Part shown: piece by piece, positions 3,180 through 29,922 of the stretch | Numbering within the stretch: position 1 is the first letter of the stretch | Layout: every line of letters starts with the position of its first letter | DNA from: Candidatus Hodarchaeota archaeon | GTDB taxonomy: Archaea; Asgardarchaeota; Heimdallarchaeia; Hodarchaeales; Hodarchaeaceae | Direction of reading: 5' to 3' | Length of the DNA: 57,016 nucleotides | Assembly: GCA_016840035.1 (NCBI GenBank) | Contig: JAEOTC010000029.1 | Coordinates: forward strand, 1 to 57,016 | Program-made: the position numbers and the translations under genes | The notes under the pieces: model-generated | The model's input: only the letters and a program-made list of their open reading frames with translations | What the model was told of the DNA's origin: nothing | Database searches by the model: none

Positions 3180-4610
3180 ATGGCTCCGATCAACATGAAA
3201 GCGTTCACAAAACTCTTTGAACGCGAAGTTATTGACGTTATGAGAGATTCTAAAGTTCCTGGAATGTCTGTGCTAATAACACAAGATAATAAAGTAATTT
3301 ATGATCGTGGTTTCGGTTATCGAGATCTTGTAAAGCGGAAACCAGCAACAAGCGAAACTATTTACGGAATTGCTTCAATAACCAAGTCTATGACCTCTTT
3401 AGCCATTTTACAGTTACATCAAACAGGAAAATTAAATATTCACAACCCCATAACCGATTATCTACCTATTGATATAGAATTTAAGGAACAACCAATTACA
3501 CTCCATCATTTAATGAGTCATTCATCTGGTATGCCAAGTTTGGATACATATGCATTCATGATGATCAACCAAGGGTACCTGGCAAACATTCCTACTTTGC
3601 CATTGGGAACATGGGAAGATTTCTATACACTGATTTCGGAGGCCCAAAGCGAATTGATCTCTCCTCCTGATTCAAAATACTACTATTGGAATGGAGGATT
3701 TACATTACTTGGTCAAATAATTGAAAAAGTTACAGGAATGTCGTATGAGGAATATATGCAACAAAAAATTTTCAATAAGCTGGGAATGAATAGAAGTACA
3801 TTTTTTAGAGAAGATTTAGGGCGAGACTCTAATGTGTCCTCTGGTTATAACTATTCATTTGATGGTACTAATATAAAACGCGCCCCCTTACCTCATCTAT
3901 CAAGTCCATTCGTAGCAAGCGCTGGAGGACTCAATACCTCAGCTCAAGAGCTTTCAAACTACTTACAAATGCATTTAAATAAGGGAACCTTCAATGATAA
4001 TAAAATAATTGATGAAACACCTCTAGAAGAAATGTATAAGCCCCATAATAGACATTCAAAAGTGAAAAATACTGAATTTTATGGATATGATGGAAATACT
4101 ACGTCTCATTATGGGTATGGGTTAAATATCTACAAGAACTATTATGGAAACACTTTAATTACACACTATGGTTATAGTGGATTCTCTGGGGGAGTTGTTG
4201 GTATTATACCAGAATTAAACATTACTTATGTACAGTTGTATAACGTGGCATGGGTTCCCCCATACCTTGCTCATACTGCCTTTGTATCATTAATGGGGAA
4301 GAATCCAGAGAAAATAATGCCTTTCTACATTCGCCGAAAACTTTATGCTAAATTATGTGGTTCTTATGAAAACTATAAAGGAATTACAAAAATAACCATT
4401 GAAAAGAGAAATGGAATGCTATATTTAATTGATAAGAACTGGATGGATCCATTTATTTTCGTCTTAATCCCAAAAGATCTTTCAAACCCCGAGAGTATGA
4501 ATTTCTATACCATAACACCAGTTGGAACTTTGGATATTGAATTCGTTAAGCCTATCGATAAACCTCTGATTTGTGAGTATGAACGTCGAATTTTTCATAA
4601 AACCACCTGA
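3180..4610 (+). CDS. Cytoplasmic serine hydrolase of the beta-lactamase/PBP fold (CubicO/Pab87-like peptidase)
   Basis: SxxK (ASITK), YxN (YWN), LMSHSSG, HYG triad; C-terminal extra domain resembling the Pab87 oligomerisation domain; no signal peptide. Confidence 0.8.
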   Translation: MAPINMKAFTKLFEREVIDVMRDSKVPGMSVLITQDNKVIYDRGFGYRDLVKRKPATSETIYGIASITKSMTSLAILQLHQTGKLNIHNPITDYLPIDIEFKEQPITLHHLMSHSSGMPSLDTYAFMMINQGYLANIPTLPLGTWEDFYTLISEAQSELISPPDSKYYYWNGGFTLLGQIIEKVTGMSYEEYMQQKIFNKLGMNRSTFFREDLGRDSNVSSGYNYSFDGTNIKRAPLPHLSSPFVASAGGLNTSAQELSNYLQMHLNKGTFNDNKIIDETPLEEMYKPHNRHSKVKNTEFYGYDGNTTSHYGYGLNIYKNYYGNTLITHYGYSGFSGGVVGIIPELNITYVQLYNVAWVPPYLAHTAFVSLMGKNPEKIMPFYIRRKLYAKLCGSYENYKGITKITIEKRNGMLYLIDKNWMDPFIFVLIPKDLSNPESMNFYTITPVGTLDIEFVKPIDKPLICEYERRIFHKTT

Positions 4611-4636
4611 TTTGGAACAAAGGAGTTACCTTCTTA

Positions 4637-5914
4637 CTACTTTCTCTTTTTCCATAGTAAGACTAGGATAATTAAGGTCAGTTCAAGAGTAAGAAAGGGA
4701 GTTTGCCTGCTAGTTGTGTCAGTGCTACTTGATTGAAGTTCGGTTGTACTTGATGATGTATCAGATGTAGATACTTCAGATTCTGATGTTTCTGTGGATT
4801 CTGTTGTAGTGGTGACAGATACATCCGTTGTTGTTGGTGAAGTAGTTTTGGTGAGATTCCATGTTGGGAGACCGGCGGCTCCTCGTACTGCATTTGTTAC
4901 ATTTAATAGTCCATATCCGTAATCATTATCTTTTCCTGGAGTACCCATATCTGTGGCAGTAGAAGTAAGTATTGATCGTACGTCGCTGGGGGATAGACTC
5001 TGATTAATTGATTTCATAAGGGCAAAACAACCACTCACATGAGGTGCAGCAAAAGATGTTCCTGATGCTAATCTTCCATCTACGGGTGCAAGTCCTCCTC
5101 CTGGAGCACAAATCTCATTTTCAGATCCTGATCTAGAGAAATACGACTTAAGGCCATTGCCACTAATTGAGGATGTGGCTATGACCTCTGGAAACTTTCC
5201 TGGATATTGTACACCCGTGGTAGTGGGATCATCCCATGTATTTCCAGTAATCCCCACAACAACGATCCCCTCCATTAAAGCTCTTTGTAAAATCTGGTGA
5301 AAACTGGTAGGTGATGTACCATAATTCCAGATACTTAGATTTATGATGTCTGCACCCATGTTGATGGAATAATTGACTGCATTTACGATTTCTGGCCAAA
5401 AGCTTCCGTTAAAACCTCCAGTATCGTCTAGTATTCGAATATCCATTATCGAAACATTTGATGCAACTTCTTTTACCCAATTAGCTACATTTGTTCCATG
5501 CCAGTAGCTTCCAGATTCATAGGGGGCATTATCTGAGGTTACAAAATCCCACCCTAAATGATCATCAATAAAACCATTATTATCATCATCAATACCGTTT
5601 GTTGCATTCTCTGCTGAATTATTCCATGCCATTCCTTGTAAGTTTACTAATGAAAAATCAACTCCAGAATCAATAACTGCAACGATGATATCCTTAGATC
5701 CATTTGTTAGTTCCCAAGCTCCAGTTACACTAATAGATTCGAGATTCCAGCTCAATTGATTATTTGATATACGAATTTCATTTGTGCCTGCCTCATACGA
5801 TCTCATTTCACCTTTCTCGTGAGTAGAGACAAGAAAAATTGTTGAAGAAATAGTAAAAATTACTAATAAAATGATAGTCGCATTCTTTATGAACTTATTT
5901 TGGACTTTCATCAT
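4637..5914 (-). CDS. Secreted, surface-anchored S8 subtilisin-like serine protease
   Basis: Catalytic triad VAVIDSG / HGTNVA / SGTSFAAPHV; N-terminal hydrophobic signal; Thr/Ser-rich stalk, then TM and KKRK tail. Confidence 0.9.
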   Translation of the reverse strand: MMKVQNKFIKNATIILLVIFTISSTIFLVSTHEKGEMRSYEAGTNEIRISNNQLSWNLESISVTGAWELTNGSKDIIVAVIDSGVDFSLVNLQGMAWNNSAENATNGIDDDNNGFIDDHLGWDFVTSDNAPYESGSYWHGTNVANWVKEVASNVSIMDIRILDDTGGFNGSFWPEIVNAVNYSINMGADIINLSIWNYGTSPTSFHQILQRALMEGIVVVGITGNTWDDPTTTGVQYPGKFPEVIATSSISGNGLKSYFSRSGSENEICAPGGGLAPVDGRLASGTSFAAPHVSGCFALMKSINQSLSPSDVRSILTSTATDMGTPGKDNDYGYGLLNVTNAVRGAAGLPTWNLTKTTSPTTTDVSVTTTTESTETSESEVSTSDTSSSTTELQSSSTDTTSRQTPFLTLELTLIILVLLWKKRK

Positions 5915-5920: not shown

Positions 5921-7267
5921 TTATTTCTGATTAATATTATTTTTTCTTTTGCTTTTTAATATAAAAAAAACGGTTAGAATCATTTCTAATATGATTAGAT
6001 TCGTCGTTTGAACTGATGTAGTTGTAATAGTAGTTATAGTAGTAGTTGTTGTTAATCCTTCAGTTGCACTTGCAGTAGATGAAGTATTATCCCCATTAGG
6101 ATCGCTAGTAGAACCAGTTGTCTCCGTTGAAGATAGAGGGGGATCGGTTGCAGGGATAATATAACTTTGCATAAGTCCAAAGCCATATCCTAATAGAAAA
6201 GTCTCCTCATCACTGGTGAAGACAACTACTAAATCTTTCTCAGGAATTACATAGATGTTTTGACCATGCCATCCATGGGCTTGGATATGACGTATATCAG
6301 TTTTAGATAACCACCATAAATATCCATATGCATACTGGGCAGAATGAGTGATAGAAACATGTTCCATTATAGATTTTTTGACCCATTCTTCAGAGATTAA
6401 TTGTGTCTCCTCCCAGGATCCATTCTGTAACATTAAGAAACCAATCTTAGCCATATCACGTGAAGTTAAAGAAAGATAGGTCTCCCCCTGTGTAATCCCT
6501 TGAGGATCTTTACCCCAAGAGTAGTCAGTAATGTTGAGAGGAGAAAACAGATACTCCTCTGCAAAGCTTTCCATTGTGTCATTATAGACTGTTTGAATAA
6601 TGGCCGAGAGAAGGTGACAATTGCCACCATTATAATTAAAGAGTGTACCTGGTGAAGCTACCATGGGTTTATCAAGAATGTACTGAATCCAATCGTTTGA
6701 TGAATCCCTCATTTTTTTAAAGTCATTTAATGGATTATCATAAGCAACCCACCATTCTTCCCACTCTAAACCAGATGTCATTGTTAATAAGTGCTCTATT
6801 GTGATATTTTGCTTCATCGCATCTATATTCTGAAAGGTTTTATTTGGAAAAAAATCGACCACTGTTTGATTCGCACCTATTAAATATCCCTTATCTATCG
6901 CTATTCCAACTAATGTAGCCGTTATACTTTTTGTTACCGAATAAACCCAGTGAGGAATATTCTTTCTGCTTTCCACTCCGAAATATTCTTCTTCAACAAG
7001 GTATCCATTCCTTACAATTAGCATGGAGTGAATTTCTTTGTTAAAACGATCGATATATGATTTTAATGAACTAATTTTACTAGGATCCATATTCTGTTCG
7101 AGAAGAGTCGATACTGTCCAGTTTTCAGTTGGCCAAGGTATATTTTCAGAATAGCTATTATATTCATTTAGATTATCCGCTTTTAACACATAATCAGCTG
7201 GTGAAGCATAATTCACGAGTAGAATAACAAGAAGTAATAATCCTACTTTGAAGATCGATCTGCGCAT
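5921..7267 (-). CDS. Secreted, surface-anchored beta-lactamase-fold serine hydrolase (class C/NylB-like family)
   Basis: YSVTKS (SxxK), LLTMTSG, FNYN, AHGWHGQ; signal peptide; Thr-rich stalk, then TM and basic tail. Confidence 0.85.
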   Translation of the reverse strand: MRRSIFKVGLLLLVILLVNYASPADYVLKADNLNEYNSYSENIPWPTENWTVSTLLEQNMDPSKISSLKSYIDRFNKEIHSMLIVRNGYLVEEEYFGVESRKNIPHWVYSVTKSITATLVGIAIDKGYLIGANQTVVDFFPNKTFQNIDAMKQNITIEHLLTMTSGLEWEEWWVAYDNPLNDFKKMRDSSNDWIQYILDKPMVASPGTLFNYNGGNCHLLSAIIQTVYNDTMESFAEEYLFSPLNITDYSWGKDPQGITQGETYLSLTSRDMAKIGFLMLQNGSWEETQLISEEWVKKSIMEHVSITHSAQYAYGYLWWLSKTDIRHIQAHGWHGQNIYVIPEKDLVVVFTSDEETFLLGYGFGLMQSYIIPATDPPLSSTETTGSTSDPNGDNTSSTASATEGLTTTTTITTITTTSVQTTNLIILEMILTVFFILKSKRKNNINQK

Positions 7268-7287: not shown

Positions 7288-8343
7288 CTATTCTACCTCA
7301 CCTTCTTTAACAAGGTTATTTACTTCTTTAAATCTGATGCATGCAACCAAGTGTGTCGGATCTGCTTCTAATAAGTCAGGATCAGTTTCTTTACATTTTT
7401 CTTCAGCATATATACATCTAGGATTGAATCTACATCCTTGAGGAAGGATTAGACCACTCGGAATCTCACCAACGATTGGAATCTCTTCAGTTCGAGTCGC
7501 TTCAGGATCAGGGTCAGGGACAGCCGAGATTAAAGCCTTCGTATAGGGATGCAAGGGATTATTGATAACATCCTCTGTTTTTCCTAGTTCCACTATTCGA
7601 CCTAAATACATCACTCCTATACGATCACACATATAACGAGCCAATGCTAGGTCATGAGTGATGAAAAGAAAGGCGGTTTGAAACTTTTTGACCAGATCCT
7701 TCATTATTCTCAAAACTCCTACCCTGATAGAAACATCTAGCATACTAACAGGCTCATCTGCAACAATAAAAGAAGGATTCAATGTGTAGGCACGAGCCAC
7801 TCCGACTCGTTGACGCATTCCTCCAGATAGCTCATGAGGATATCGGTCAAGGAAATCCTCTGTTTGTGGAAGTCCGACTGATTTAAGAGTCTCTTTAACT
7901 CTTTCAACAACTTCATCTTCACTGTTATATATCTTAAGTAACCTTAGTGGCTCTGCAATTGTGTCTAAAACACTAAAGCGAGGGCTTAAAGATTCGTAAG
8001 GATTTTGAAAAATAATTTGCATTTCTTTTCGTTTTGTCTTAATTTCACCTTCCGATAGTTGGGAAATATCTTCATTTCTGAAATTAATGACTCCACTAGT
8101 CGGTTCAATGAGTTTAAGTAGAAGTAATCCAACTGTTGTTTTTCCACAACCAGATTCGCCTACTAGTCCAAAAGTTTCTCCAGCAGAGATCTTAAAACTG
8201 ACTTTATCTACCGCGTGTACCTTTAAATCGATAGGTTCCTTACCTCGGTAAAAGAATTGTTCTCTTAGAGTTTGTGTAAGAGATTTTTTTAATGGGAAAT
8301 GCTTCACTAAATTAGTAACCTCAATTATTACATCCTGATTCAT
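7288..8343 (-). CDS. oppF: Oligopeptide/dipeptide ABC transporter ATP-binding subunit (OppF/DppF type)
   Basis: GESGCGKT, LSGGMRQR, ADEP, C-terminal HPYT...GCRFNPRC oligo_HPY domain. Confidence 0.9.
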   Translation of the reverse strand: MNQDVIIEVTNLVKHFPLKKSLTQTLREQFFYRGKEPIDLKVHAVDKVSFKISAGETFGLVGESGCGKTTVGLLLLKLIEPTSGVINFRNEDISQLSEGEIKTKRKEMQIIFQNPYESLSPRFSVLDTIAEPLRLLKIYNSEDEVVERVKETLKSVGLPQTEDFLDRYPHELSGGMRQRVGVARAYTLNPSFIVADEPVSMLDVSIRVGVLRIMKDLVKKFQTAFLFITHDLALARYMCDRIGVMYLGRIVELGKTEDVINNPLHPYTKALISAVPDPDPEATRTEEIPIVGEIPSGLILPQGCRFNPRCIYAEEKCKETDPDLLEADPTHLVACIRFKEVNNLVKEGEVE

Positions 8344-8366
8344 ACATTACACATCCTTTCATCGAT

Positions 8367-9317
8367 TTAGTATAAATGACAAGCAACATACCCATCTTTT
8401 CTACTATCGGTATACGCTGGATTTTTCTTTTTGCAAATATCCATAACTTTTGGACATCTTGGATGAAATCTGCATCCAGAGGGTGGAGTCAAAAGATCTG
8501 GTGGAGCTCCTTTTATCTCTTTGAGTTCCATCCTTGGACCAGTAAGACTAGGGAATGCGCTAAGGAGAGCTGCAGTATAAGGATGGAGGGGTTCTTTGAA
8601 GATATCTCGGTTCTCACCAAATTCTACCAATTTTCCAGCATACATGATTGCAGTTTTATCACATATCTCAGCAATGACGGACAGATCGTGAGTGATTATA
8701 ATCATTGATAATCCAAGTCGATCTTTCAAGCTTTTTACAGATTTAAGAACTTGAGACTGAACTATTACATCGAGAGCTGTCACTGGTTCATCAGCCATAA
8801 TAATATCCGGATTAGAAACTAAAGAAAGAGCAATCAATGCTCTCTGTTGCATTCCACCTGATAATTGATGAGGATAATCTCGAGCTCGTTCAGGATCAAT
8901 ACCAACACTTGTCAGGACATCAAAAACTCTATTGTATCCTTCCTCTTTAGAAACATCAGGTTCATGAATCTTAATTACTTCAAAAATTTGATTTCCAACT
9001 CTATGGACCGGATTTAAAGCATTCATTGCCCCTTGGAAAATCATAGAGATTTTGCTACCTCTGATATCCTTCATTTCTTTCTTGGATAACTTTCCAAGGT
9101 CTTTTGACTTGTAAGTAATATTTCCTTCAATTTTTCCTGGAGGTTGTATCATTCGCATGATTGATAGACATGTTGTGGTTTTACCACAACCAGATTCTCC
9201 TGCAAGACCAAGAGTTTGCTCTTTTTCTAATTTGAACGAAACGTCATCAACAGCTTTTACTATCCCCGCTCGAGTATAAAAGTACGTTTTGAGATTGTTA
9301 ACTTCGAGTAATACCAT
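8367..9317 (-). CDS. oppD: Oligopeptide/dipeptide ABC transporter ATP-binding subunit (OppD/DppD type)
   Basis: GESGCGKT, LSGGMQQR, ADEP, HPYT...GCRFHPRC. Confidence 0.9.
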   Translation of the reverse strand: MVLLEVNNLKTYFYTRAGIVKAVDDVSFKLEKEQTLGLAGESGCGKTTTCLSIMRMIQPPGKIEGNITYKSKDLGKLSKKEMKDIRGSKISMIFQGAMNALNPVHRVGNQIFEVIKIHEPDVSKEEGYNRVFDVLTSVGIDPERARDYPHQLSGGMQQRALIALSLVSNPDIIMADEPVTALDVIVQSQVLKSVKSLKDRLGLSMIIITHDLSVIAEICDKTAIMYAGKLVEFGENRDIFKEPLHPYTAALLSAFPSLTGPRMELKEIKGAPPDLLTPPSGCRFHPRCPKVMDICKKKNPAYTDSRKDGYVACHLY

Positions 9318-9321
9318 ATTC

Positions 9322-10293
9322 TCATCTCTTTCTTAGGCGAGGATTTACAATTGCATCTAATGCAATTCCAATGAACGCAAAGCTTATTCCAATAAGGGCA
9401 ATAAGAATTGCTGGCGGAAACATAAGCCACCATGCACCACGGGTGAATGCGGCTTCAGCTTGGGCAGTATTTAATATAAAGCCTAAAGACCAGTTAAGTG
9501 GATCACTAAATCCGAGGTAGGCTAAAAAAGCTTCAAAAAGAATTGCTTGACGCATCGCTGTGATCATCATGGTTATCATCAACGGGAACACATTTGGTAA
9601 AATGTGTTTGAATATTATGTAAGGTGTTGAAGCTCCCGCTGCTTTGGCACTCAGGACAAAAGTCCGTTCTTTAAGAGATAGCGCTTGTCCACGAATGAGA
9701 CGGGCTGAAACTGGCCAGTAAATAGCTACTATAAGAATAGCAGTGAGCTCCCATGTAGTAGTCCCTCCACCAATTTCTGGTACTGATGCTAACATCAATA
9801 ACAATGGTAATGGAGGTATTACTAAAATCACTTCAGAAATTCTCATGATAACTGCATCTACCTTTCCTCCAACATAAGCACTAGAAACACCAATAATTGT
9901 TCCTAAGAGAACAACAAATATACCAGATATGAATGCAACTGCGAGAGATACGCGGAGGCCGAAAAAGAGAAGTGTATAAACATCAAACCCAAGTTCAGTT
10001 GTACCAAAAGGATGATCTGAGAATGGATTCCAAAATGGACCAAGTTCGATAGTAGTAAACGGTATGGGGATGGTCCATACTCTAGGGTCCATACCTGATT
10101 CCTGAAGATTGATCTCGTCCGGGCCAGGAGGACCATAGGGAGTTAATCCGTCTGCTGTTATTGCTAGTACAATGAGAATTACTAAAATTACTATTCCGAT
10201 AACACCAAGCCGATTGGATTTATAGACTGTCCAAAACTTTTTCCAAGTCTTCCAACGTCTTTGTAGAGTTTTATTACTTTGTAATTTGTACAT
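9322..10293 (-). CDS. oppC: Oligopeptide ABC transporter permease (OppC/DppC type)
   Basis: HPFGTTELGFDV, EAA-like loop SAKAAGAS...HILPN, multiple TMs. Confidence 0.9.
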   Translation of the reverse strand: MYKLQSNKTLQRRWKTWKKFWTVYKSNRLGVIGIVILVILIVLAITADGLTPYGPPGPDEINLQESGMDPRVWTIPIPFTTIELGPFWNPFSDHPFGTTELGFDVYTLLFFGLRVSLAVAFISGIFVVLLGTIIGVSSAYVGGKVDAVIMRISEVILVIPPLPLLLMLASVPEIGGGTTTWELTAILIVAIYWPVSARLIRGQALSLKERTFVLSAKAAGASTPYIIFKHILPNVFPLMITMMITAMRQAILFEAFLAYLGFSDPLNWSLGFILNTAQAEAAFTRGAWWLMFPPAILIALIGISFAFIGIALDAIVNPRLRKR

Positions 10294-10304
10294 AATTCTA
10301 CCTC

Positions 10305-11501
10305 CTATGACCGTTGTACTCTAGGATCAATAACACTGTAAAGCACCTCGGCAATAACTAATCCTAATAGAGTTAGTGCAGTGATAATGATGAACGAACC
10401 CTGAACAAGATTGTAATCACTATTTAAAAGAGCGGTATAAATTAAATCCCCTGTTCCAGGATAAGAAAAGATTTGTTCGACTAGAATAGAGCCTCCAATG
10501 ATACTTCCAAAACTCATTCCAATATCTGTGACTACTGGAAGCATTGCATTTCTCATACAATGACCATAAAGGACCTCATTTTCGTCTAAACCCTTTGAAA
10601 TTGCTGTTTGAACGTAATCTTCAGTCAATACACCAATAATATTTCCTCTCATAAACCATCCATAGGCTAATACTCCGTATATAGTTAAAACGAGTATTGG
10701 AAGAAGGGCATGATGGAAAATATTCTGTAGTGTTGCAATTGAACCTTGATCTTCAATACCTGGTGTTTTACCTCCCGAAATTGGAAACCATAAATGCAAA
10801 TCCCCGTCTGAAAAATTGAGTGATATTAGTGTGAGGATTAGGCCAAGTAACACAACCAACCCAATTTTACTGGAAAATGATCTATCGAATTGCATCTTCT
10901 CCTTGAATGTCTTTCCTTTTCGTCGGTAAATTAATATGAAAATTATAACTAGGACTACTAGAGAGTAAAATATGGGGTATGGAATTTTCCAATCATTCTT
11001 TTCCGGATGTGCTTGGTACCCCAGAAAATAGATGAAAAAAATCCCAGTGAAAAATAATGGAGTTGCGTTTAAAATGAGGGAAGAGGTTACAAAAGTCGCA
11101 TCTAGTTTAGATGCACGACGCCAACCGATATAAGCTCCGATTAACACACCGATAATTGTTGAAAGGATTGTTGAGGTTCCTAAGATGAGTAAAGTCCACG
11201 GGAGTCTTTCCAGGATCAAATCACTTACTGGCCGTCCATGTTCAAACGAATAACCAAGATCCCCTCGAAAGATATTACTTAGATAAATAATGAATTGTTC
11301 TGGAATTGATTTATCTAATCCCCATTTTTTGATTAATACTTCTTTTTGTTCGTCAGTTATCCCATGATGTCCTGCAGGAGCAAAAACATTGACCGGATCG
11401 TTTTCAATTGCCCGATATAGGAGAAATACAAATGTGAGAGCGACAAAGAATGCAAATGCTGCAAAAAGAATTCTCTTACCAATGAAACCTAATGTACCCA
11501 T
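10305..11501 (-). CDS. oppB: Oligopeptide ABC transporter permease (OppB/DppB type)
   Basis: GLDKS...GDLGYS...RLPWT, EDYVQTAISKGL, EQIFSYPGTG; contains an extra two-helix insertion. Confidence 0.9.
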   Translation of the reverse strand: MGTLGFIGKRILFAAFAFFVALTFVFLLYRAIENDPVNVFAPAGHHGITDEQKEVLIKKWGLDKSIPEQFIIYLSNIFRGDLGYSFEHGRPVSDLILERLPWTLLILGTSTILSTIIGVLIGAYIGWRRASKLDATFVTSSLILNATPLFFTGIFFIYFLGYQAHPEKNDWKIPYPIFYSLVVLVIIFILIYRRKGKTFKEKMQFDRSFSSKIGLVVLLGLILTLISLNFSDGDLHLWFPISGGKTPGIEDQGSIATLQNIFHHALLPILVLTIYGVLAYGWFMRGNIIGVLTEDYVQTAISKGLDENEVLYGHCMRNAMLPVVTDIGMSFGSIIGGSILVEQIFSYPGTGDLIYTALLNSDYNLVQGSFIIITALTLLGLVIAEVLYSVIDPRVQRS

Positions 11502-15161: not shown

Positions 15162-15167
15162 CTATAC

Positions 15168-20608: not shown

Positions 20609-20758
20609 ACTTATATCTCCTAAGATATATTGATAATGGTTTTTCAAAGTTGATCAGAAATACCTAGATATTCTCTAAAAAAACTTTTATATTTTGCGTT
20701 TTTTCATAACAATACATTATCCACTTCATTTTTTCTTCAAAACTAAGGAGTAATACTC

Positions 20759-22243: not shown

Positions 22244-22264
22244 TTTTCCTGAGGTGATTTTGAC

Positions 22265-22696: not shown

Positions 22697-22717
22697 ACTT
22701 TGAAGGATGTTAATCAA

Positions 22718-23653
22718 ATGAAACTTGGATGTTATATGCCTACATTTGGTGGATGGATTGGTAATGTTGGTGTAGAAGAACCTGAAATTTCTTATAGTAA
22801 TGTGAAATCTTCAGCTATTCTTGCAGAAAGTGTAGGTCTTGATTCCATATGGGTTGCTGATCATCTTCTTAATCCATTAAAAGGAGAACATGAGAAGTGT
22901 CTTGAAGCGTGGACTATTCTAACTGCATTAGGAGTACTTACACAGCGTGTAAAAATCGCTCATACAACCTTGTGTCAGGGATTTAGATATCCAGCTGTTT
23001 TAGCTAAAATGGCCACTACATTGATGGAAATATCTAAGGATCGTTTTATCCTTTCCATTGGCGCAGGTTGGTATAAACGAGAGTTTGAGTCATATGGTAT
23101 TCCTTGGTATGAACATGATGAACGAGTCGCTCAAACTGAAGAACAGCTTCAGATAATCAAGTCCCTTTGGACAAAAGAAAAGACAGATTTCGAGGGAGAT
23201 TATTATTCCATTAAGGAAGGGCGTCTCTATCCAAAACCAGGTGAGATCCCTCAAATTTGGTATGGAGGTGAGTCAGAAGCATCAAAACGGCTAGTAATTA
23301 GAAATGCTGATGTATGGCTAATGTATGATTCTTCACCAGCCAATGTTCGTAAAAAGATAAAAGAAATTCTCCCTCAACTCAAGAAAAAGAAACTAAAATA
23401 TGCTGTTTCTACACATATCGTTCCTGGTGACACGGATAAGACTGCTTTTCAAAGATTAGAATGGCTTACCCAAGGTAATGTTGAAGCCAAGGATCGAATC
23501 TCGAGATTAGGGATTGTTGGTTCTCCTCAAACTATCAAAGAAAAACTGCTGGAATATGCAGATACAGGCCTCGATCACTTATTGCTTAAATTCAGTAATA
23601 CTACTGAAGATCTTTCATTTTTAAGAGATATGCTATCCAAATGGGAGTCGTAA
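22718..23653 (+). CDS. Luciferase-like (LLM) flavin/F420-dependent oxidoreductase
   Basis: WVADH, EAWTIL, RYPAVLAKMATT, IGAGWYKREF, WYGG, VGSP. Confidence 0.88.
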   Translation: MKLGCYMPTFGGWIGNVGVEEPEISYSNVKSSAILAESVGLDSIWVADHLLNPLKGEHEKCLEAWTILTALGVLTQRVKIAHTTLCQGFRYPAVLAKMATTLMEISKDRFILSIGAGWYKREFESYGIPWYEHDERVAQTEEQLQIIKSLWTKEKTDFEGDYYSIKEGRLYPKPGEIPQIWYGGESEASKRLVIRNADVWLMYDSSPANVRKKIKEILPQLKKKKLKYAVSTHIVPGDTDKTAFQRLEWLTQGNVEAKDRISRLGIVGSPQTIKEKLLEYADTGLDHLLLKFSNTTEDLSFLRDMLSKWES

Positions 23654-23657
23654 ATAT

Positions 23658-25262
23658 ATGTATCCAGATTTGATTTTATATAATGGAAAAATAATTAGTT
23701 TGGATAAGGAAAATTCCATCGTGGAGGCTGTTGCCATAAAATTCGGCTATATCGTCAAAGTAGGAACAAATGATGATATTTTAAATACAGAGGGATCATT
23801 AACACAAAAAATAGATCTCAAGGGGAAAACCCTTATTCCAGGACTCATTGATTCTCATTCTCATATGATTGCTTCTGGAATAGCTAGATTAATTTATGTT
23901 GATTTGAGTGAAGAAGCGGGAGTAAGGAGTATAAAGGATCTCCAGGAAAAATTAGGGGAAAGAGTGAATGAGACTCCAGAGGGAGAGTGGATTTTTGGAT
24001 ATCAAGAAGACGATGCTAAGCTGATAGAAAAACGACACCCTACTAGACAAGAACTAGATACAATTTCAACCAAACATCCAATTCTCATCACTACAGTAGG
24101 AGGACATTTTTGGATCGCAAATACGAAAGCATTCGACTCGGGAAACGTAACCAAAGATACACCTGATCCTGTAGGAGGAAAATTCGATCGTGATTCTCAA
24201 ACAGGAGAATTAACAGGTGGTTTTCACGAAAAAGCACTCAATTTAATTCGTAATTCAGAGGATCCTCCCTACTCTCGAGAATTAGCTCAAAAAGGTGCTT
24301 TTCAGATCTTACAGGAATGTGCTGCTTTAGGATTGACAACTATCTATGATACAGTTGAAGCTTCTCACATTAGAGCAGTTTTAGATCTTAAGAATCAAGG
24401 TACTCTCCCAATTAGAGTAAGAATGGATGCTAATATTGAATTAATTACTAATTTAGATGAAGTGGGGATATATCGAGGATTTGGAGATGATTGGCTTAGG
24501 CTTTGTGGTCTTAAATATTTTTTCGATGGTGCTATCTCAGCTAGAACCGCTGCAGTATCAGAACCGTATCTCAATAAGCCTAATTTTTTTGGTGTAATGG
24601 CTACGACAAGGGAAATTGCCCAGAAGATTCTAGAAGCAGCGTATCAGAAAGGATATCGAATCTCAGCCCATGCAAATGGTGATCGTGCAATCGATCTTTT
24701 TCTCGATATAATGGAAGAACTTCAAGGAAAATATCCGAGGGATGATCCTCGGAATCGAGATATTCATTGTACAGTTGTGAACCCAAGAATTATATCCAGA
24801 ATCAAAAAACTGGGTATACTTCCAACAATATTTGGCCCCTATCCATACTATCATGGAGATAAACTCATTCCTGCATTCGGCGAAAAACGATTGGAATGGA
24901 TGTTTGCTGCTAGGTCTTTTCTTGACTCAAACATTATTCTTAGTGCTCATTCTGACCATCCATGTGCCCCGAATTCTCCACTAATGGCAATTCATTCTTT
25001 AGTAAATCGTAAAACTAAGATGGGAAAAAATATTGGCAGTACACAAAAAATCTCCGTTCAAGAAGCATTGCGCTTATACACGATTAATGCTGCTTATCAC
25101 TCCTTCGATGAGGAGAAGTTAGGGACGATTGAAGAAGGTAAGTTGGCAGATTTTGTGCTTTTGGGGGAAGATATATTACATATAGATGAATCAAAAATTA
25201 AGGATATTCCAATAGAAATGACATTCGTCGGTGGTAAGATCGTCTATCAGAAATTAAATTAA
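23658..25262 (+). CDS. YtcJ-like metal-dependent amidohydrolase (Amidohydro_3)
   Basis: PGLIDSHSH, KYFFDG, HANGD, HSDHP, GTIEEGKLADFV. Confidence 0.9.
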   Translation: MYPDLILYNGKIISLDKENSIVEAVAIKFGYIVKVGTNDDILNTEGSLTQKIDLKGKTLIPGLIDSHSHMIASGIARLIYVDLSEEAGVRSIKDLQEKLGERVNETPEGEWIFGYQEDDAKLIEKRHPTRQELDTISTKHPILITTVGGHFWIANTKAFDSGNVTKDTPDPVGGKFDRDSQTGELTGGFHEKALNLIRNSEDPPYSRELAQKGAFQILQECAALGLTTIYDTVEASHIRAVLDLKNQGTLPIRVRMDANIELITNLDEVGIYRGFGDDWLRLCGLKYFFDGAISARTAAVSEPYLNKPNFFGVMATTREIAQKILEAAYQKGYRISAHANGDRAIDLFLDIMEELQGKYPRDDPRNRDIHCTVVNPRIISRIKKLGILPTIFGPYPYYHGDKLIPAFGEKRLEWMFAARSFLDSNIILSAHSDHPCAPNSPLMAIHSLVNRKTKMGKNIGSTQKISVQEALRLYTINAAYHSFDEEKLGTIEEGKLADFVLLGEDILHIDESKIKDIPIEMTFVGGKIVYQKLN

Positions 25263-25275
25263 CAGATGGTTGATT

Positions 25276-26241
25276 ATGAACATGACTAGTCAGATTAAAT
25301 CAAACGACAACACAAAAATAAATCCAAAAACCTCTTATCGAGAACCAATTTTAAAGTTTGACTTTCCTGGTGTAAGAATAGGGATAGGTGAATATGAGGA
25401 GGGGCCGACTGGATGTACAGTATTTCATTTTAAGAAAAGAGTTAAAATGGTTTCAGATATACGTGGTGGCGCACCTGGAGTGGTGGGAGCACATCTAAAT
25501 CAAGTTGATACCGTTACTTTTGCAGGTGGAAGTCTTCTTGGATATGAAGCGATTACAGGTGTGAATGCAGAAGTATTACAAGCTAATGATTATAAACTGG
25601 ATTGGGAATCAGTTCCTCTCGGAGCTGGAGCAATTATCTGGGACTTTCCAGGGCGTACTAATACTGTGTACCCTGATAAAGCCCTGGGTAGAGCCGCATT
25701 ACGTAGTGCGAAAGAAAACGTATTTCCGTTGGGAAATCAGGGAGCTGGTAAATCTGCTACAGTGGGAAAATTTTTGGATTTTTCTTATCATGAGCCTGGA
25801 GGACAAGGTGGAGCTTTTGCTCAATTTGGTGAAGTGAAAATTTTAGTATTTACTGTTGTCAATGCTCTAGGTTCTCTATACAATAGAAAAGGAGAAATTG
25901 TGCGAGGTCATTTTAATCAGAAGGAAGGCACTAGAATCGATGTTTCTGAAGCGATTAAGACATGGGCTAGATATAAGGACCAAACACAAAAAGGAAATAC
26001 AACTCTTACCTTAGCAATTACTAATCAAAAATTCCCGTCTCGATATGAATTTCAACAAGTATCTCGACAAATTCATGTCTCAATGGCGAGAGCAATTCAG
26101 CCTTTCCATCATCTAGATGATGGTGATGTATTTCTCCTGGCTAGCACCGAAGAGGTATTCGACAAACAGCTTACCTCGGGTGCTTTTGGTGTTTTAGCTG
26201 GAGAGCTTGCTTGGGATGCAATTTTGACATGTTTTGAATGA
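25276..26241 (+). CDS. nylC: NylC-like endo-amidase (6-aminohexanoate-oligomer hydrolase family; S58/P1, Thr nucleophile)
   Basis: Blocks recalled from NylC: LKFDFPGV, YEEGPTG, DIRGGA, VYPDKALGRAAL, GN|TT autocleavage site, IQPFH..DGD, ELAWDAIL. Confidence 0.8.
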   Translation: MNMTSQIKSNDNTKINPKTSYREPILKFDFPGVRIGIGEYEEGPTGCTVFHFKKRVKMVSDIRGGAPGVVGAHLNQVDTVTFAGGSLLGYEAITGVNAEVLQANDYKLDWESVPLGAGAIIWDFPGRTNTVYPDKALGRAALRSAKENVFPLGNQGAGKSATVGKFLDFSYHEPGGQGGAFAQFGEVKILVFTVVNALGSLYNRKGEIVRGHFNQKEGTRIDVSEAIKTWARYKDQTQKGNTTLTLAITNQKFPSRYEFQQVSRQIHVSMARAIQPFHHLDDGDVFLLASTEEVFDKQLTSGAFGVLAGELAWDAILTCFE

Positions 26242-26334
26242 ATAAAGTATAATTGGTCAATGAAAAGAAAATAAGTAAAGAATGAATTTGTATAACTGTT
26301 TGAATGTATGTTATGTGTTAAAGGAGTATTTAAG

Positions 26335-27483
26335 ATGAAATTTGATAAGATTATGATCATTGGACTTGTGGTTTTACTGCTTTCACCTGTTGCTATATTA
26401 CTTTCAATCAATGAGCATTTTGTACTCGAAAACCAGTACTCAATAACTGACTATCGATCTAGAGGAATTGTTGTTGAAAATGGAGTTGCTTACATTGCAG
26501 GTGATAATGTACTAGAAGCCGTCAGTATAGATGATCCTAATTTTATGTTCCAATTCGGTAAAATAGAAACGCAAGGAGATATTGTTGGTCTCTTCAAATC
26601 GGGAAATTTGGTGTACTTACCCTATGAAACTGGTGGATTTACAATTATTGATGTTACCAATGTTCTAAATCTTATTTCTGTTGGAAATTACTCTAGCAGT
26701 TCAACAATCTGGGATATCTTCGTTTCTGGAACTAAAGCTTATTTACCTGTTGCAGATGCGGGTTTAGACATTGTGGATGTGACAAACCCAAGTAATATTT
26801 CATTGGTGGGTAGCTATCATGATGGGTCGAACGGTACAGATAGAATATTCGTCGAAGGATCCATTGCATATTTAGGGGAAGCTTCTAATGGACTCAAAAT
26901 CATAGATATTTCTAATTCCTCGAATCCTCAACTCCTAGGACAGTATGATAAAAATATTCGTGATATCTTTGTAAAAGACAATATTGCGTATCTAGCTTTA
27001 ACTGATGGTCTTGAATTCTCAGGTGTAGAAATTGTTGACATGGAGGATCCTACAGATCCAAAACTACTGTCAAGAATAGAAATACCAACGTATGACATAT
27101 TTGTAAAGAATGAATTTGTTTACATACCAGTAAAGTATGAACAGCTTGTGGTTTACGATATTAGTAAGTTAGAGTCGCCTCGTAGAGTTGGACAATATCC
27201 TTTTCCCTCAAAATATCCAGTATCGCGTGGAAACATAGTTTTTAGCCTTGAGAATCGTATTTACTTATGTACTCAAAATCTAAATATCATCAATCAAGAA
27301 CTGACAAAACTTGATCTTAGTGATAACGGGATAAGGACAACCATTTTGGTGGCTTTTCTCGGTGTAATTGTTATACTAATTAGTCTTTATCGTGATCGTT
27401 CAGAGAAGAATAGCATTGATTATTATCTAAAACTCTATAAGGCGAAAAAAGCAAAATTAAAACATCAGGATAATATTCAGTAA
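26335..27483 (+). CDS. Membrane-anchored LVIVD-repeat beta-propeller protein
   Basis: Repeated AYL/AYI...GLxIVDV(T/S)NP units; N-terminal and C-terminal TM segments; start at ATG 26335 behind AAGGAG. Confidence 0.85.
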   Translation: MKFDKIMIIGLVVLLLSPVAILLSINEHFVLENQYSITDYRSRGIVVENGVAYIAGDNVLEAVSIDDPNFMFQFGKIETQGDIVGLFKSGNLVYLPYETGGFTIIDVTNVLNLISVGNYSSSSTIWDIFVSGTKAYLPVADAGLDIVDVTNPSNISLVGSYHDGSNGTDRIFVEGSIAYLGEASNGLKIIDISNSSNPQLLGQYDKNIRDIFVKDNIAYLALTDGLEFSGVEIVDMEDPTDPKLLSRIEIPTYDIFVKNEFVYIPVKYEQLVVYDISKLESPRRVGQYPFPSKYPVSRGNIVFSLENRIYLCTQNLNIINQELTKLDLSDNGIRTTILVAFLGVIVILISLYRDRSEKNSIDYYLKLYKAKKAKLKHQDNIQ

Positions 27484-27502: not shown

Positions 27503-28609
27503 TCACAATCGACATTTAGCGAAAATTTCTTGAACCTCTGACTGGGGTAAAGCATGAACAGTGTTTCCGTTTATTCCTGTCATCGTTTTTGCATTTATAA
27601 GGGCATTAATTATAGCTTCTTCCGTTGCTTCAGCAACCGCTTTGAAAAAGGGGGTTAAATACATATCAGACAATGATTCAACCGTTTTAACTCTGGATTT
27701 ACTGGGATCTACAATAAGATTCGCAGTGGAGAATCCTAAAAATAAATCACCCGATGTATGGCCTCCATATCCCCCTATTCGAGCTAAACCGGCAGTTATC
27801 CGTTTGACTAAACGTTTCAATTGATAAGGGAGTAGTGGGGCATCGGTAGCTGCAATAACTATTATGGAACCGTTTTCTTGTTTTTCTGTATCAAGACGAG
27901 GTTGTTTTATCTGAATTTCAGGTTTATAATCACTGATTTCCTTCCCAACTGGAACTCCGTTTATGGTGAAGTGTTCCCTTTTCCCATAATTTGTCTGAAC
28001 GCAGAGACCAATAGTGTACTCTGAGACTCTACGTGAGCTGGTACCAAAACCACCCTTGAAGCCGTGACATATATTTCCAGTAGCACCACCTACACTTCCC
28101 TCCATGACTTTTCCTCCCTTTGCTTTATCACAGGCTAAAAAAACATGTTCCTTCTTAATATGGAATCCATTAATATCATTTAATAATCCGTCATAAGTCT
28201 CTGCAACCACGGGTAGACTCCAAAAAATGGGATCAGTGTAAAAATTATTATCAATTCTCCACTGGATTATTGCATCTCTCACGACGCCTACACTATGTGT
28301 ATTTGTAAGACATATTGGTCCTTTAAGTTGACCTGATTCATTTACCCAATGACTACCAGTCATCTCGCCATTTCCATTATAAGAGAAAAGAGCAGCATAT
28401 ACTTTATCAGGATTTTTTCCTGTGGGAAAAATAGCAGTAACTCCAGTTCGTATTGGACCTTTACCGACTTTTAGTTCTCCTTCTCCCTCAATCAAGGTGC
28501 AATGTCCAACTTCAACTCCCTTGACATCAGAAATCGAATTATATTTACCAGTTGTTCCTTCAAAAGGAATCCCAAGATCACGTGCCTTCATAGCGGTCAA
28601 ATGTGACAT
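27503..28609 (-). CDS. dmpA: DmpA/BapA-family aminopeptidase (S58/P1; L-aminopeptidase/D-amidase or beta-peptidyl aminopeptidase)
   Basis: ARDLGI, RTGVTAI, NGNGEMTG, PVVAETYDG, G|SIIVIAATDAPL autocleavage site, SGDLFLGFST. Confidence 0.88.
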   Translation of the reverse strand: MSHLTAMKARDLGIPFEGTTGKYNSISDVKGVEVGHCTLIEGEGELKVGKGPIRTGVTAIFPTGKNPDKVYAALFSYNGNGEMTGSHWVNESGQLKGPICLTNTHSVGVVRDAIIQWRIDNNFYTDPIFWSLPVVAETYDGLLNDINGFHIKKEHVFLACDKAKGGKVMEGSVGGATGNICHGFKGGFGTSSRRVSEYTIGLCVQTNYGKREHFTINGVPVGKEISDYKPEIQIKQPRLDTEKQENGSIIVIAATDAPLLPYQLKRLVKRITAGLARIGGYGGHTSGDLFLGFSTANLIVDPSKSRVKTVESLSDMYLTPFFKAVAEATEEAIINALINAKTMTGINGNTVHALPQSEVQEIFAKCRL

Positions 28610-28689
28610 ATGTGTTTTAGAATTTTCTCATTCAATTTAATCAATAATTATTTCCTGACCTTCACGGTCTTAAGCAAAAACCTAAATCA

Positions 28690-29922
28690 ATGTCCAAAAT
28701 TCTGAAATTGACGATCATGACGAGTTTAGATTCACGTAAACAAAAGGAAAAAGCCTTTAAAAAAGGAAAGATCTCTCTAGCTGTCGATAAATCAGTGTAT
28801 AAACGTTTTTCCGAGCGAGATATGATTTTTGCACGGGTAATGTGGGATGAAAGCTATTCAGGATATCGACGAGCGATTAATGAGAAAGAAGAGACTAAAA
28901 TGGGCATGAAAGGTTATAGTCAAGAGGGTTACGCTGCAATGAATGCTGCGTGGATGGTTCATGATACTTTTCGTCAGGCCTTTTCATGGGAAAACCCAAA
29001 ACAGGCTCCAACATCACTTACTCAATCTACAATCAAACCTAAAAGATTTAAGTCCTCTGACTTAGAAAAAAACTCAAAAATCGTAAAAAGAATAGCTAAC
29101 GTTTATGGAGCATGTGATGTTGGCATAACAGAACTAGATCCAGATCATCCATATCTTTACACTCATGATCGAATGAACAATGAAATAAATTTCCCAGAGG
29201 GAGTAAAATACGCTATCGTAATGCTTATTCAGATGGATTATCAGGCTTTGAAAACCTCACCAGCTTTGCCATCTAGTATCACAACAGGGAATGGATACTC
29301 CCGAATGGCTTTTGCAATCGCAGGTATGGCTGATTTTTTGCGAAATCTTGGATATCAGGCAATACCTGCTGGAAATGATACCGGAATTTCTGTTCCATTA
29401 GCTATTCAGGCAGGTTTAGGTCAAGTGGGAAGAAATGGTTTATTGATTAATCCGAAATATGGACAATCGGTACGGATTTGCAAAGTTTATACTGACTTTC
29501 CAATGAAAATTGACCAACCAATCGATTTTGGTGTACACCAGTTCTGTAGAGTGTGTAAGAAGTGTGCTAAGTATTGTCCAAGTCAAAGCATTCTCTATGA
29601 TGATGATCCAACTTGGGAAAGTCCTTGGAACAGTGTTTCGAATAATAATGGATCCTATAAGCATTATGTTAATGTAGAGACATGCTACGAATTTTGGGTA
29701 AAAAATTCAACAGATTGTTCAAACTGTATGCGGGTTTGTCCATTTACAAAACCTCCTGGAATTGCACATGATATTGCACGATTCTTTATCAAATATTTTC
29801 CATTTTTGGATCCTCTGTGGCTTCGATTGGATAATTTGATGGCGTATCTACCTTGGTGGCGATATGGAAAGAAAGATGATGCGTTGAAATTCTGGAAGGG
29901 AAAAAAGTATCTGGGAAAATAA
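28690..29922 (+). CDS. Reductive dehalogenase-family protein (cobalamin, 2x Fe-S), without Tat signal
   Basis: GACDVGI, RNLGYQAIP, AIQAGLGQVGRNGLLINPKYG, CRVCKKCAKYCP (CX2CX2CX3CP), CYEFW...CSNCMRVCPF. Confidence 0.8.
   Translation: MSKILKLTIMTSLDSRKQKEKAFKKGKISLAVDKSVYKRFSERDMIFARVMWDESYSGYRRAINEKEETKMGMKGYSQEGYAAMNAAWMVHDTFRQAFSWENPKQAPTSLTQSTIKPKRFKSSDLEKNSKIVKRIANVYGACDVGITELDPDHPYLYTHDRMNNEINFPEGVKYAIVMLIQMDYQALKTSPALPSSITTGNGYSRMAFAIAGMADFLRNLGYQAIPAGNDTGISVPLAIQAGLGQVGRNGLLINPKYGQSVRICKVYTDFPMKIDQPIDFGVHQFCRVCKKCAKYCPSQSILYDDDPTWESPWNSVSNNNGSYKHYVNVETCYEFWVKNSTDCSNCMRVCPFTKPPGIAHDIARFFIKYFPFLDPLWLRLDNLMAYLPWWRYGKKDDALKFWKGKKYLGK

Follow-up and report, generated by a model that had tools for sequence, protein, structure and literature searches.

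The window analyzed here is the entire 57-kb contig (57,016 nucleotides; C98 of genome G000) of a Candidatus Hodarchaeota metagenome-assembled genome (MAG), and our subject is the gene cluster at positions 3180 to 29922, in which ten peptidases and amidases are combined with an oligopeptide (Opp) importer, an Lrp-type regulator, a class-III aminotransferase (AT3), a CoA-acylating (methyl)malonate-semialdehyde dehydrogenase (MSDH; here MmsA), and a 143-residue ferritin-like protein (u143). Judging from sequence comparisons, we put the probability at roughly one half that this is a modular locus of a marine-sediment heimdallarchaeon for the utilization of atypical peptides and amides, built around a conserved funnel for beta-amino acids. 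Because relatives keep the core and the importer and exchange the hydrolases, the cluster looks like a genuine, modular locus for scavenging unusual peptides, and we regard it as a fixed funnel and importer served by swappable feeder hydrolases, with no single linear pathway.

Gene content and organization of the cluster

Genome G000 is a 4.3-Mb MAG of 293 contigs that is approximately 87% complete. In a sequencing-run search, near-identical DNA was confined to marine-sediment metagenomes (four DNA runs from one study, with no RNA run among the matches), and relatives that possess the locus carry the name Candidatus Heimdallarchaeota. The listed open reading frames were assigned to families by Pfam and NCBIfam profile scans, with NCBIfam scores read against their curated cut-offs. 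An earlier note on this DNA had described an island of ten hydrolases accompanied by an Opp importer, an Lrp regulator, AT3, and MmsA; the scans recovered every family that it named, each where the note had placed it, and catalytic or autoprocessing motifs are kept in 10 of 10 hydrolases. Two of its labels did not survive: the CE4 deacetylase-family amidase is not a PuuE ortholog (TIGR03212, 98.9 bits against a cut-off of 424.6), and the right-hand end of the range (28690–29922) is a reductive-dehalogenase-family protein, which is no amidase and probably stands outside the pathway.

The genes are arranged in three tight operons and three single genes (Table 1), with within-operon spacing of −8 to 66 bp; operons 2 and 3 are divergent, with 111 bp between them (20648–20758). 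The non-hydrolase extras inside the range are a short-chain dehydrogenase/reductase (SDR), u143, a luciferase-like oxidoreductase (LLM), and an LVIVD-repeat surface protein. Homologs of the hydrolases occupy 33 places in the 4.3-Mb genome, 10 of which fall within 26.7 kb, and this clustering far exceeds chance (Poisson P ~3e-14, or ~6e-8 assuming 150 such genes, in a test that is post hoc). Separately assembled per-run contigs from three marine-sediment DNA runs span 13297–18783 (Lrp to the nitrilase-superfamily CN hydrolase), 17240–20140 (M20 to AT3), and 20569–22900 (AT3 to LLM), and because they bridge the key junctions, these are no assembly chimera. Apparent contig “joints” covered 20–21 bases on one side and were read as other organisms or repeats. 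The window shows no GC anomaly, no tRNA, and no flanking direct repeats; the word “island” therefore holds for the clustering beyond chance and not for mobility, and the locus is a gene cluster, with no demonstrable mobile island.

The AT3, MmsA, and u143 funnel

The assignment of the funnel to beta-alanine/3-aminoisobutyrate oxidation is well supported by the comparisons that follow. All ten of the best solved relatives of MmsA are MSDHs (E = 2e-127 to the B. subtilis MSDH 1T90). The Arg-Cys dyad is kept (“QRC” aligns with “ERC” of 1T90), and the ELGGK-equivalent motif lacks the Glu (“GGAKN” aligns with “TGAKN” of 1T90); we take the Arg-preceded Cys to be catalytic and the missing Glu to be the general base. 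The next gene encodes u143, for which AlphaFold predicts a ferritin-like four-helix bundle (pLDDT 90.7; TM-score 0.78 to TM1526, 1vjx). Its family comprises more than 1000 sequence clusters, has no Pfam domain, and is often labeled “rubrerythrin” at JGI; the members compared (window and loci L058–L137) are 128–145 residues long and share the invariant block R-E-N-x-T-E-M-I-L-E-P-I. A search with u143 gave 80 metagenome loci, of which 47 reach 5 kb or more; in 42 of these 47, u143 lies directly 3′ of MmsA, the other 5 having u143 at the contig end; where upstream DNA is present, MmsA is upstream in 42 of 42 loci. This suggests that u143 is an unrecognized accessory protein of MmsA; a complex prediction for the two, run without controls, scored 0.01.

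The MmsA–u143 pair also closes canonical reductive pyrimidine clusters, both in many metagenome loci, such clusters being widespread in contigs from sediment, and in G002, a member of the same genus. These clusters consist of dihydropyrimidinase (TIGR02033, 494 against a cut-off of 393), a CN hydrolase, a class-III aminotransferase, PreA (NF006183, 449 against 335), MmsA, and u143. The MmsA of the window is 73–76% identical to those of the pyrimidine clusters (for L072, MmsA is 73% and u143 41% identical), whereas identity to the pyrimidine-cluster types is only 38% for its aminotransferase and 30% for its CN hydrolase. Since the pair closes pyrimidine clusters, its substrates would be the C3 semialdehydes that derive from beta-alanine and 3-aminoisobutyrate, and because of the same context, MmsA–u143 with a class-III aminotransferase would make up the terminal module for these two compounds. 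Asgard archaea appear to attach this module either to pyrimidine-ring enzymes or to an Opp importer with peptide and amide hydrolases.

Recurrence of the locus in other Asgard archaea

A search anchored on AT3 and covering 185,579 species genomes found orthologs (56–72% identity) restricted to Asgard MAGs, namely Heimdallarchaeota, Thorarchaeota, and others. AT3 adjoins MmsA–u143 in 11 of 12 Heimdallarchaeota loci, at least 7 of which also have Opp no more than 10 kb from the core (L031, L033, L034, L037, L038, L040, and L041). The neighbors are variable and include DmpA (6 loci), the NylC-like enzyme (3), YtcJ (3), the anchored beta-lactamase-fold hydrolase (2), and the Pab87-like peptidase (2), along with S8 pairs, S9, FmdA/AmdA, and M20. 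In L031, one strand carries Opp, a regulator, MmsA, u143, AT3, the NylC-like gene, YtcJ, FmdA/AmdA, and S9, followed by DmpA and two S8 genes, with 14 co-directional genes from the substrate-binding protein (SBP) to the S9 peptidase. A co-directional AT3–DmpA pair adjoins MmsA–u143 in L036, L041, and L122, an arrangement that would represent a minimal “beta-aminopeptidase, transaminase, MSDH” module; DmpA is at most 7 kb from AT3 in L031, L034, and L037. In G024, which belongs to another family, a cluster found with the DmpA and MmsA anchors comprises DmpA, M20, YtcJ (69%), the anchored beta-lactamase-fold enzyme (54%), AT3 (71%), MmsA (70%), u143, Opp, and a Pab87-like peptidase (50%).

Thorarchaeota loci are arranged as Opp, BPL_N, AT3, M28, CN hydrolase (59–64%), M20 (55–61%), and M28, and the Thorarchaeota-like locus L080 reads MmsA, u143, Lrp, AT3, M20, CN hydrolase, and M28. 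The window unites the Heimdallarchaeota set with the Thorarchaeota-type set, adding C45, the CE4–SDR pair, LLM, and LVIVD. G002 shares the right flank only, with DmpA, the reductive dehalogenase-family gene, a 2-hydroxyacid dehydrogenase, and sugar ABC genes.

Importer, surface proteins, and regulator

The importer is of the Opp/Dpp type, with two ATPases and two permeases, and orthologs of OppD/F (52–69%) adjoin MmsA–AT3 in 7 Heimdallarchaeota loci. N-terminal hydrophobic signals predict a surface location for the SBP, the S8 subtilase, one of the beta-lactamase-fold enzymes, and LVIVD, and C-terminal anchors are predicted for the beta-lactamase-fold enzyme, the SBP, and LVIVD; the remaining hydrolases look cytoplasmic. 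These predictions agree with the surface stage of hydrolysis proposed in the earlier note; the Pab87-like peptidase is predicted to be cytoplasmic. The S8 enzyme has an N-terminal hydrophobic segment and a D82/H139/S287 triad, and S8 genes, frequently paired, recur in L031, L035, and L037–L040. The anchored beta-lactamase-fold hydrolase has a signal peptide and a C-terminal anchor (transmembrane, TM, segments at residues 1 and 418) and the motifs S110xxK and Y176xN; its best solved relative is Lsa45 (128 bits), with NylB matching weakly (52–73 bits), and orthologs occur in L034 (54%) and L038 (39%). No ortholog of LVIVD was found among the related loci.

The Lrp gene is divergent from the SBP gene, 217 bp apart, and its orthologs directly adjoin MmsA–u143 in G016 (64%), a closed genome of the same genus (CP070760.1), and in L080 (59%). 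Five loci have a gene for a protein of approximately 730 residues after OppF (L031 5874–8066, L034 4555–6726, L037 5862–8051, L038 4676–6871, and L040 4615–6867), and the L031 copy, the sole one scanned, consists of TPR repeats and an ArsR-type helix-turn-helix (HTH) domain. Such a TPR–HTH regulator is common behind OppF in Heimdallarchaeota loci, and the window has its Lrp-type regulator in its place.

Cytoplasmic hydrolases

DmpA matches both characterized enzymes of its family equally (E = 2.8e-93 to DmpA 1B65 and 5.5e-93 to BapA 3N2W). It retains the Gly|Ser self-processing motif (E-N-G247|S248-I-I), in which we take G247|S248 to correspond to G249|S250 of DmpA, and it is a candidate beta-alanyl/D-alanyl aminopeptidase. 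Its gene is directly co-directional with AT3 in the three loci with the minimal arrangement, and BapF, of the same family, is required for beta-alanyl aminopeptidase activity in Pseudomonas aeruginosa, where it is encoded in a regulator-permease-bapF operon (PMC13344977). The link between DmpA and the funnel is supported by the operon structure in relatives together with the known activity of DmpA/BapF enzymes, which liberate beta-alanine from the N terminus (PMC13344977).

The NylC-like protein aligns over residues 12–320 with residues 35–352 of NylC 3AXG (~309 residues) and keeps the DGD block. Its GN243|T244T matches the GNTT site at which NylC cleaves itself (Asn266|Thr267; PMC6021441), giving a predicted N-terminal Thr nucleophile, and orthologs (54–58%) adjoin AT3 in L031, L035, and L040. 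The Pab87-like peptidase combines a beta-lactamase fold with a C-terminal Pab87 octamerization (lipocalin) domain, carries the motifs SxxK, YxN, and HxG at residues 66, 169, and 329, and has no TM segment; its orthologs (49–50%) adjoin Opp in L041 and G024.

For YtcJ, the solved relatives are uncharacterized Pyrococcus structures only, the match to dihydropyrimidinase (TIGR02033, E = 8.5e-6) is far under the cut-off, and orthologs (63–69%) occur in L031, L034, and L039. Orthologs of M20 (55–61%) adjoin a CN hydrolase and AT3 in Thorarchaeota loci and L080, and those of the CN hydrolase (59–64%) flank AT3 and M20 in Thorarchaeota loci. The best solved relative of the CN hydrolase is the Nit2 omega-amidase (100 bits), and its gene overlaps by 8 bp that of C45, which has a processing site at G100|C101 and no solved relative. 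CE4 is present in a single copy in the genome, its best solved relative being 3rxz (186 bits).

Table 1. Features of the locus (window coordinates unless a locus is named)
Feature	Position	Strand	Assignment and basis
Pab87-like	3180–4610	+	Pab87/CubicO-type S12 serine peptidase; PF00144 194 bits; PF13969 41.9 bits (cut-off 27)
S8	4637–5914	−	Subtilase, predicted secreted/anchored; PF00082 118 bits; end of Opp operon
Anchored beta-lactamase-fold	5921–7267	−	Serine hydrolase, predicted surface; PF00144 110 bits
OppF, OppD, OppC, OppB	7288–11501	−	ABC_tran + oligo_HPY x2, BPD_transp_1 x2, OppC_N
SBP	11753–13603	−	Family-5 SBP; SBP_bac_5 198 bits; signal peptide; C-terminal TM at residue 591
Lrp	13821–14342	+	Lrp/AsnC (FFRP) regulator; HTH_AsnC + AsnC_trans_reg
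SDR	14406–15161	−	SDR oxidoreductase; adh_short_C2 224 bits; last in AT3 operon
CE4	15168–15992	−	NodB-fold deacetylase-family amidase; PF01522 83 bits
M20	15996–17291	−	ArgE/DapE-family deacylase/dipeptidase; TIGR01910 284.8 > 217.6
C45	17355–18419	−	Ntn autoproteolytic acyltransferase/hydrolase, accessory; NF040521 180 > 85
CN hydrolase	18412–19299	−	Nitrilase-superfamily amidase; PF00795 110 bits; K116 + C148
AT3	19313–20647	−	Class-III (omega-type) aminotransferase; PF00202 384 bits; first in operon 2
MmsA	20759–22243	+	CoA-acylating MSDH; TIGR01722 499.8 > 448.5
u143	22265–22696	+	143-residue ferritin-like four-helix bundle (predicted); no Pfam family
LLM	22700–23653	+	Luciferase-like (F420/FMN) oxidoreductase; PF00296 184 bits; no NCBIfam cut-off reached
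YtcJ	23658–25262	+	YtcJ-like Amidohydro_3 metal amidohydrolase; PF07969 316 bits; H67xH69
NylC-like	25270–26241	+	NylC-type Ntn (S58/P1) endo-amidase homolog; weak S58 in Pfam; E = 7.3e-62 to NylC 3AXG
LVIVD	26308–27483	+	LVIVD-repeat surface protein, accessory; PF08309 95.6 bits; signal peptide; TM at residues 6, 339
DmpA	27503–28609	−	DmpA/BapA-family (S58) aminopeptidase; PF03576 365 bits
Reductive dehalogenase family (RDH)	28690–29922	+	Fe-S protein; TIGR02486 223 > 160
Operon 1	13603 to 4637	−	SBP-OppB-OppC-OppD-OppF-anchored beta-lactamase-fold-S8; gaps 4–23 bp past SBP
Operon 2	20647 to 14406	−	AT3-CN hydrolase-C45-M20-CE4-SDR; gaps −8 to 63 bp
Operon 3	20759 to 27483	+	MmsA-u143-LLM-YtcJ-NylC-like-LVIVD; gaps 3–66 bp
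Single genes	3180–4610; 13821–14342; 27503–28609	+; +; −	Pab87-like; Lrp; DmpA
Reductive pyrimidine cluster	L072 3432–10420		Also L060, L064, L077, L084, L132; G002:C93

Proposed function and alternative explanations

As we picture the locus, the surface S8 and the anchored S12-like hydrolase would trim detrital or cell-wall peptides, and the SBP with Opp would import the resulting oligopeptides or oligoamides. Cytoplasmic enzymes tolerant of non-alpha or non-L bonds would then free the residues, the NylC-like protein acting as an endo-amidase, DmpA as a beta/D-aminopeptidase, and the Pab87-type enzyme as a D-peptidase, and YtcJ, M20, the CN hydrolase, C45, and CE4 may act as deacylases or amidases. 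AT3 would transaminate the released beta-alanine or 3-aminoisobutyrate to malonate or methylmalonate semialdehyde, which MmsA with its companion u143 would turn into acetyl- or propionyl-CoA, and the divergent promoters are probably under the control of the Lrp-type regulator, with an amino acid as its signal. In Pseudomonas sp. AAC, the beta-alanine pathway consists of an omega-transaminase and an MSDH (PMC4907197), and Pab87 acts on D-amino-acid peptides and is encoded beside aminotransferase, aminoacylase, and Dpp transporter genes (PMC2651629). The claim of the earlier note that non-standard amides are the substrate is upheld to the extent that the pyrimidine anchor of MmsA–u143 favors beta-amino acids; what each of the other hydrolases does, and any one class of substrate, we infer.

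Several observations weigh against this interpretation. AT3 reaches no NCBIfam equivalog cut-off, its solved relatives at similar scores include ornithine/GABA transaminases and class-III-fold racemases, and its scores (270 bits for the best match and 252 bits for the BAR racemase 9wrf) do not separate racemase from transaminase. Thorarchaeota loci have AT3 without MmsA within 10 kb. With C45 as the anchor, the best matches in 40 relatives are 35–37% identical and unlinked to other island genes, and C45, CE4, LLM, and LVIVD are not conserved alongside the core; these four and RDH appear to be accessory or unrelated. In the closed G016, the modules lie apart, with CE4–SDR–DmpA at 1.61 Mb, MmsA–u143–Lrp–LLM at 0.77 Mb, and AT3 at 1.34 Mb, where its neighbors are an SBP and a 204-residue N-terminal OppB fragment (L032 7127–7741, −), so that the importer operon beside AT3 looks decayed. 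A search of four promoter regions for a common operator returned two 10-mers alone, one of them resembling a ribosome-binding site (an AGGAG stretch), and nothing convincing; the 111-bp AT3/MmsA region (20648–20758) has no operator motif in common with the other promoter regions. The substrates named for the enzymes are predictions from sequence. S8, M20, M28, and S9 are ordinary L-peptidases in most organisms, and much of the flux may for this reason be normal peptides. The synteny across Heimdallarchaeia that the earlier note had proposed as a check is seen for the Opp, AT3, MmsA, and u143 core and breaks down for the varying hydrolases, for the unlinked C45, and in the dispersed modules of G016; its “complete route” as a single 27-kb unit does not stand, given the unlinked C45, the accessory CE4, LLM, LVIVD, and RDH, and the three sites in G016.

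The best-surviving alternative, although we consider it unlikely, is a general locus for protein and peptide necromass, in which Opp and ordinary peptidases yield L-amino acids and AT3–MmsA handle by-products only (such as beta-alanine from aspartate decarboxylation or methylmalonate semialdehyde from valine), with no link to non-standard amides. S8, M20, M28, and S9 dominate the variable neighbors, the SBP is a generic family-5 protein that reaches no NCBIfam equivalog cut-off, and Thorarchaeota loci pair AT3 with M28/M20 and Opp in the absence of MmsA, all as this explanation would have it. What it leaves aside is the recurrence of the DmpA/BapA, NylC, and Pab87 families, whose characterized members cut beta-, D-, and omega-amino-acid amides (for Pab87, see PMC2651629), and the direct AT3–DmpA operon adjoining MmsA–u143 in three loci.

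Salvage of D-peptides (peptidoglycan debris) of the Pyrococcus type appears improbable. Here, the Pab87-like, DmpA, and beta-lactamase-fold enzymes would release D-amino acids, AT3 would be a racemase like BAR of P. horikoshii, and Lrp a DARP-like sensor of D-amino acids. DmpA is also a D-Ala amidase/esterase, which counts for this possibility, as do the Pab87 homolog with its octamerization domain and the closeness of the BAR racemase score to that of the best match of AT3. In Pyrococcus, an aminotransferase, a D-aminoacylase, and a Dpp transporter surround Pab87 (PMC2651629), and BAR is controlled by a regulator of the feast/famine type (FFRP) responsive to a D-amino acid (PMC13628549). A racemase, however, would leave unexplained both the near-invariable pairing of AT3 with MmsA–u143 in Heimdallarchaeota loci and the presence of MmsA–u143 with a class-III aminotransferase in pyrimidine clusters; moreover, YtcJ matches no characterized D-aminoacylase, its solved relatives being the Pyrococcus hydrolases mentioned above, and Pab87 orthologs occur in just 2 related loci.

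The recurrence of the MmsA–u143 module in canonical reductive pyrimidine clusters could also be taken to mean that the window holds a variant cluster for nucleobases or cyclic amides (pyrimidine, hydantoin, or lactam), with LLM, YtcJ, CE4, the CN hydrolase, and M20 yielding beta-alanine for AT3/MmsA by ring opening and removal of carbamoyl groups, and Opp merely adjacent. The CN-hydrolase and M20 families both include beta-ureidopropionases, and LLM recurs after u143 in G016 and L084. Such a cluster is quite improbable: no PreA homolog was found in the window or in G000 (87% complete), the best dihydropyrimidinase-like gene of G000 is 39% identical and on another contig, YtcJ scores far below the dihydropyrimidinase cut-off, the CN hydrolase shares just 30% identity with that of the clusters, a nucleobase transporter is absent, and many loci show synteny of the core with Opp and peptidases.

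A fortuitous neighborhood of unrelated small operons without a common function would agree with the three separate places of the modules in G016, the poor conservation of the accessory genes, and the failure to find a shared operator in the promoter regions, but the clustering far above chance and the same combinations in many independent MAG contigs, including the 14-gene co-directional array of L031, make it highly improbable. Least probable of all is a route for long omega-amino-acid oligomers that would be nature's equivalent of the nylon-oligomer pathway (NylB/NylC/NylD/NylE). One could cite for it the strong NylC homolog with its autocleavage site, the distant NylB matches of a beta-lactamase-fold hydrolase, and the class-III family of AT3, to which NylD also belongs. 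The aldehyde dehydrogenase (ALDH), however, should then be of the NylE type and is instead an MSDH, which is CoA-acylating and decarboxylating and acts specifically on C3 semialdehydes; the likeness to NylB (52–73 bits) is exceeded by that to Lsa45, and the NylC-like gene is found in just 3 related loci.

Returning to the modular locus with its beta-amino-acid funnel, a bolder version is that Heimdallarchaeota and Thorarchaeota live on diagenetically altered or non-ribosomal peptides rich in beta-alanine and D-residues by means of such loci, that the natural job of NylC-type and DmpA enzymes is beta/omega-amide cleavage feeding AT3–MmsA, and that u143 is a subunit of MmsA; we offer this tentatively and would not expect all of it to hold.

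Comparison with known systems

The closest archaeal precedent, overlooked in the earlier note, is the Pab87 D-peptide locus of Pyrococcus abyssi/horikoshii with its CubicO-type peptidase (PMC2651629) and the BAR/DARP (FFRP) cluster (PMC13628549), for which use of environmental D-amino-acid peptides has likewise been proposed. The two systems have in common a Pab87-type S12 peptidase, a Dpp/Opp importer, a class-III-fold pyridoxal phosphate (PLP) enzyme, an amidohydrolase-type deacylase, and an Lrp/FFRP regulator. The Pyrococcus locus differs in that it is without the MmsA–u143 funnel, DmpA, the NylC-like enzyme, C45, CE4, the CN hydrolase, and in-operon surface hydrolases, and its PLP enzyme is a proven racemase, whereas that of the window is paired with an MSDH. 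From the locus tags, PH0138/PH0140 presumably adjoin the Pab87 ortholog PH0142/0143.

Among bacteria, the P. aeruginosa bapF operon (PA1484–1486; PMC13344977) resembles the window in placing a DmpA-family beta-alanyl aminopeptidase with a transporter and a regulator, and the Pseudomonas beta-alanine route (PMC4907197) likewise proceeds by transamination and then MmsA-type oxidation. In Pseudomonas, however, the peptidase operon is separate from the catabolic genes, the transporter is a permease and not Opp, and there is neither a ferritin-like partner nor an amidase battery. The reductive pyrimidine clusters (L060, L072, L077, and G002:C93) share with the window the MmsA–u143 pair, a divergent class-III aminotransferase, and an adjacent CN hydrolase, whereas the window is without PreA and dihydropyrimidinase and has peptidases/amidases and an Opp importer as feeders. 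The parallel with nylB/nylC (and nylD/nylE) of Arthrobacter/Paenarthrobacter, which the earlier note had drawn, extends to NylC with its Asn|Thr site and to a class-III aminotransferase and an ALDH downstream of amide hydrolysis; it ends with the ALDH, which is a C3 CoA-acylating MSDH and not NylE-like, with the beta-lactamase-fold enzymes, which are not close to NylB and have better matches elsewhere, and with the host, an archaeon of anaerobic sediment with no link to synthetic polymers.

Our literature searches turned up no account of a locus like this one in Heimdallarchaeia, in agreement with the earlier note, and none for NylC with archaea or for Heimdallarchaeota with DmpA or NylC; a paper on nylonase diversity yielded no mention of native function or substrate, genomic context, neighborhood, or archaea. 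The parts are of known kinds, as seen in peptidase clusters linked to Opp, in the Pab87 locus and the bapF operon, and in the omega-transaminase and MSDH route for beta-alanine (PMC4907197). What is new is how they are combined, the recurrence of this combination in modular form among Asgard archaea, the context gained for NylC-type enzymes, and the obligate MmsA–u143 pairing. The locus also defines a family of small ferritin-like proteins that is the constant companion of MmsA in Asgard-type clusters. Asgard archaea are usually summed up as “peptide fermenters,” and the locus suggests a narrower, testable niche in beta-alanine- or D-residue-containing peptide debris of marine sediments. The genomic context also provides a hypothesis for the natural role of NylC-type nylon hydrolases, and DmpA, the NylC-like enzyme, YtcJ, and the Pab87-like peptidase make a compact enzyme set of interest for beta-peptide/polyamide biocatalysis.

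Accessory and neighboring genes

The CE4–SDR pair (73%/70%) adjoins DmpA in G016, and an SDR of 73% identity occurs in the Thorarchaeota locus L042. The same locus has genes for a B12-binding corrinoid protein and an MtmB-family methyltransferase (17413–19442, +) a few kilobases from its AT3–M28–CN hydrolase–M20 module. LLM follows MmsA–u143–Lrp in G016 (L021; 53%) and u143 in the pyrimidine-type locus L084 (33%). A signal-less RDH lies beside DmpA or within ~4 kb of it in four genomes of the same genus (the window, G001:C32, G002:C14, and G017:C63), an arrangement that may reflect either inherited gene order or a tie in function. In G016, an intein-bearing MCM gene is located 3 kb from the importer remnant beside AT3. 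A serine-recombinase (resolvase) gene (L031 20526–21275, −) lies next to the S8 pair, on the margin of that locus, a weak hint that parts of the loci move. The left border of the cluster in the window is formed by a HerA–NurA gene pair for DNA-end resection (134–2793, −).

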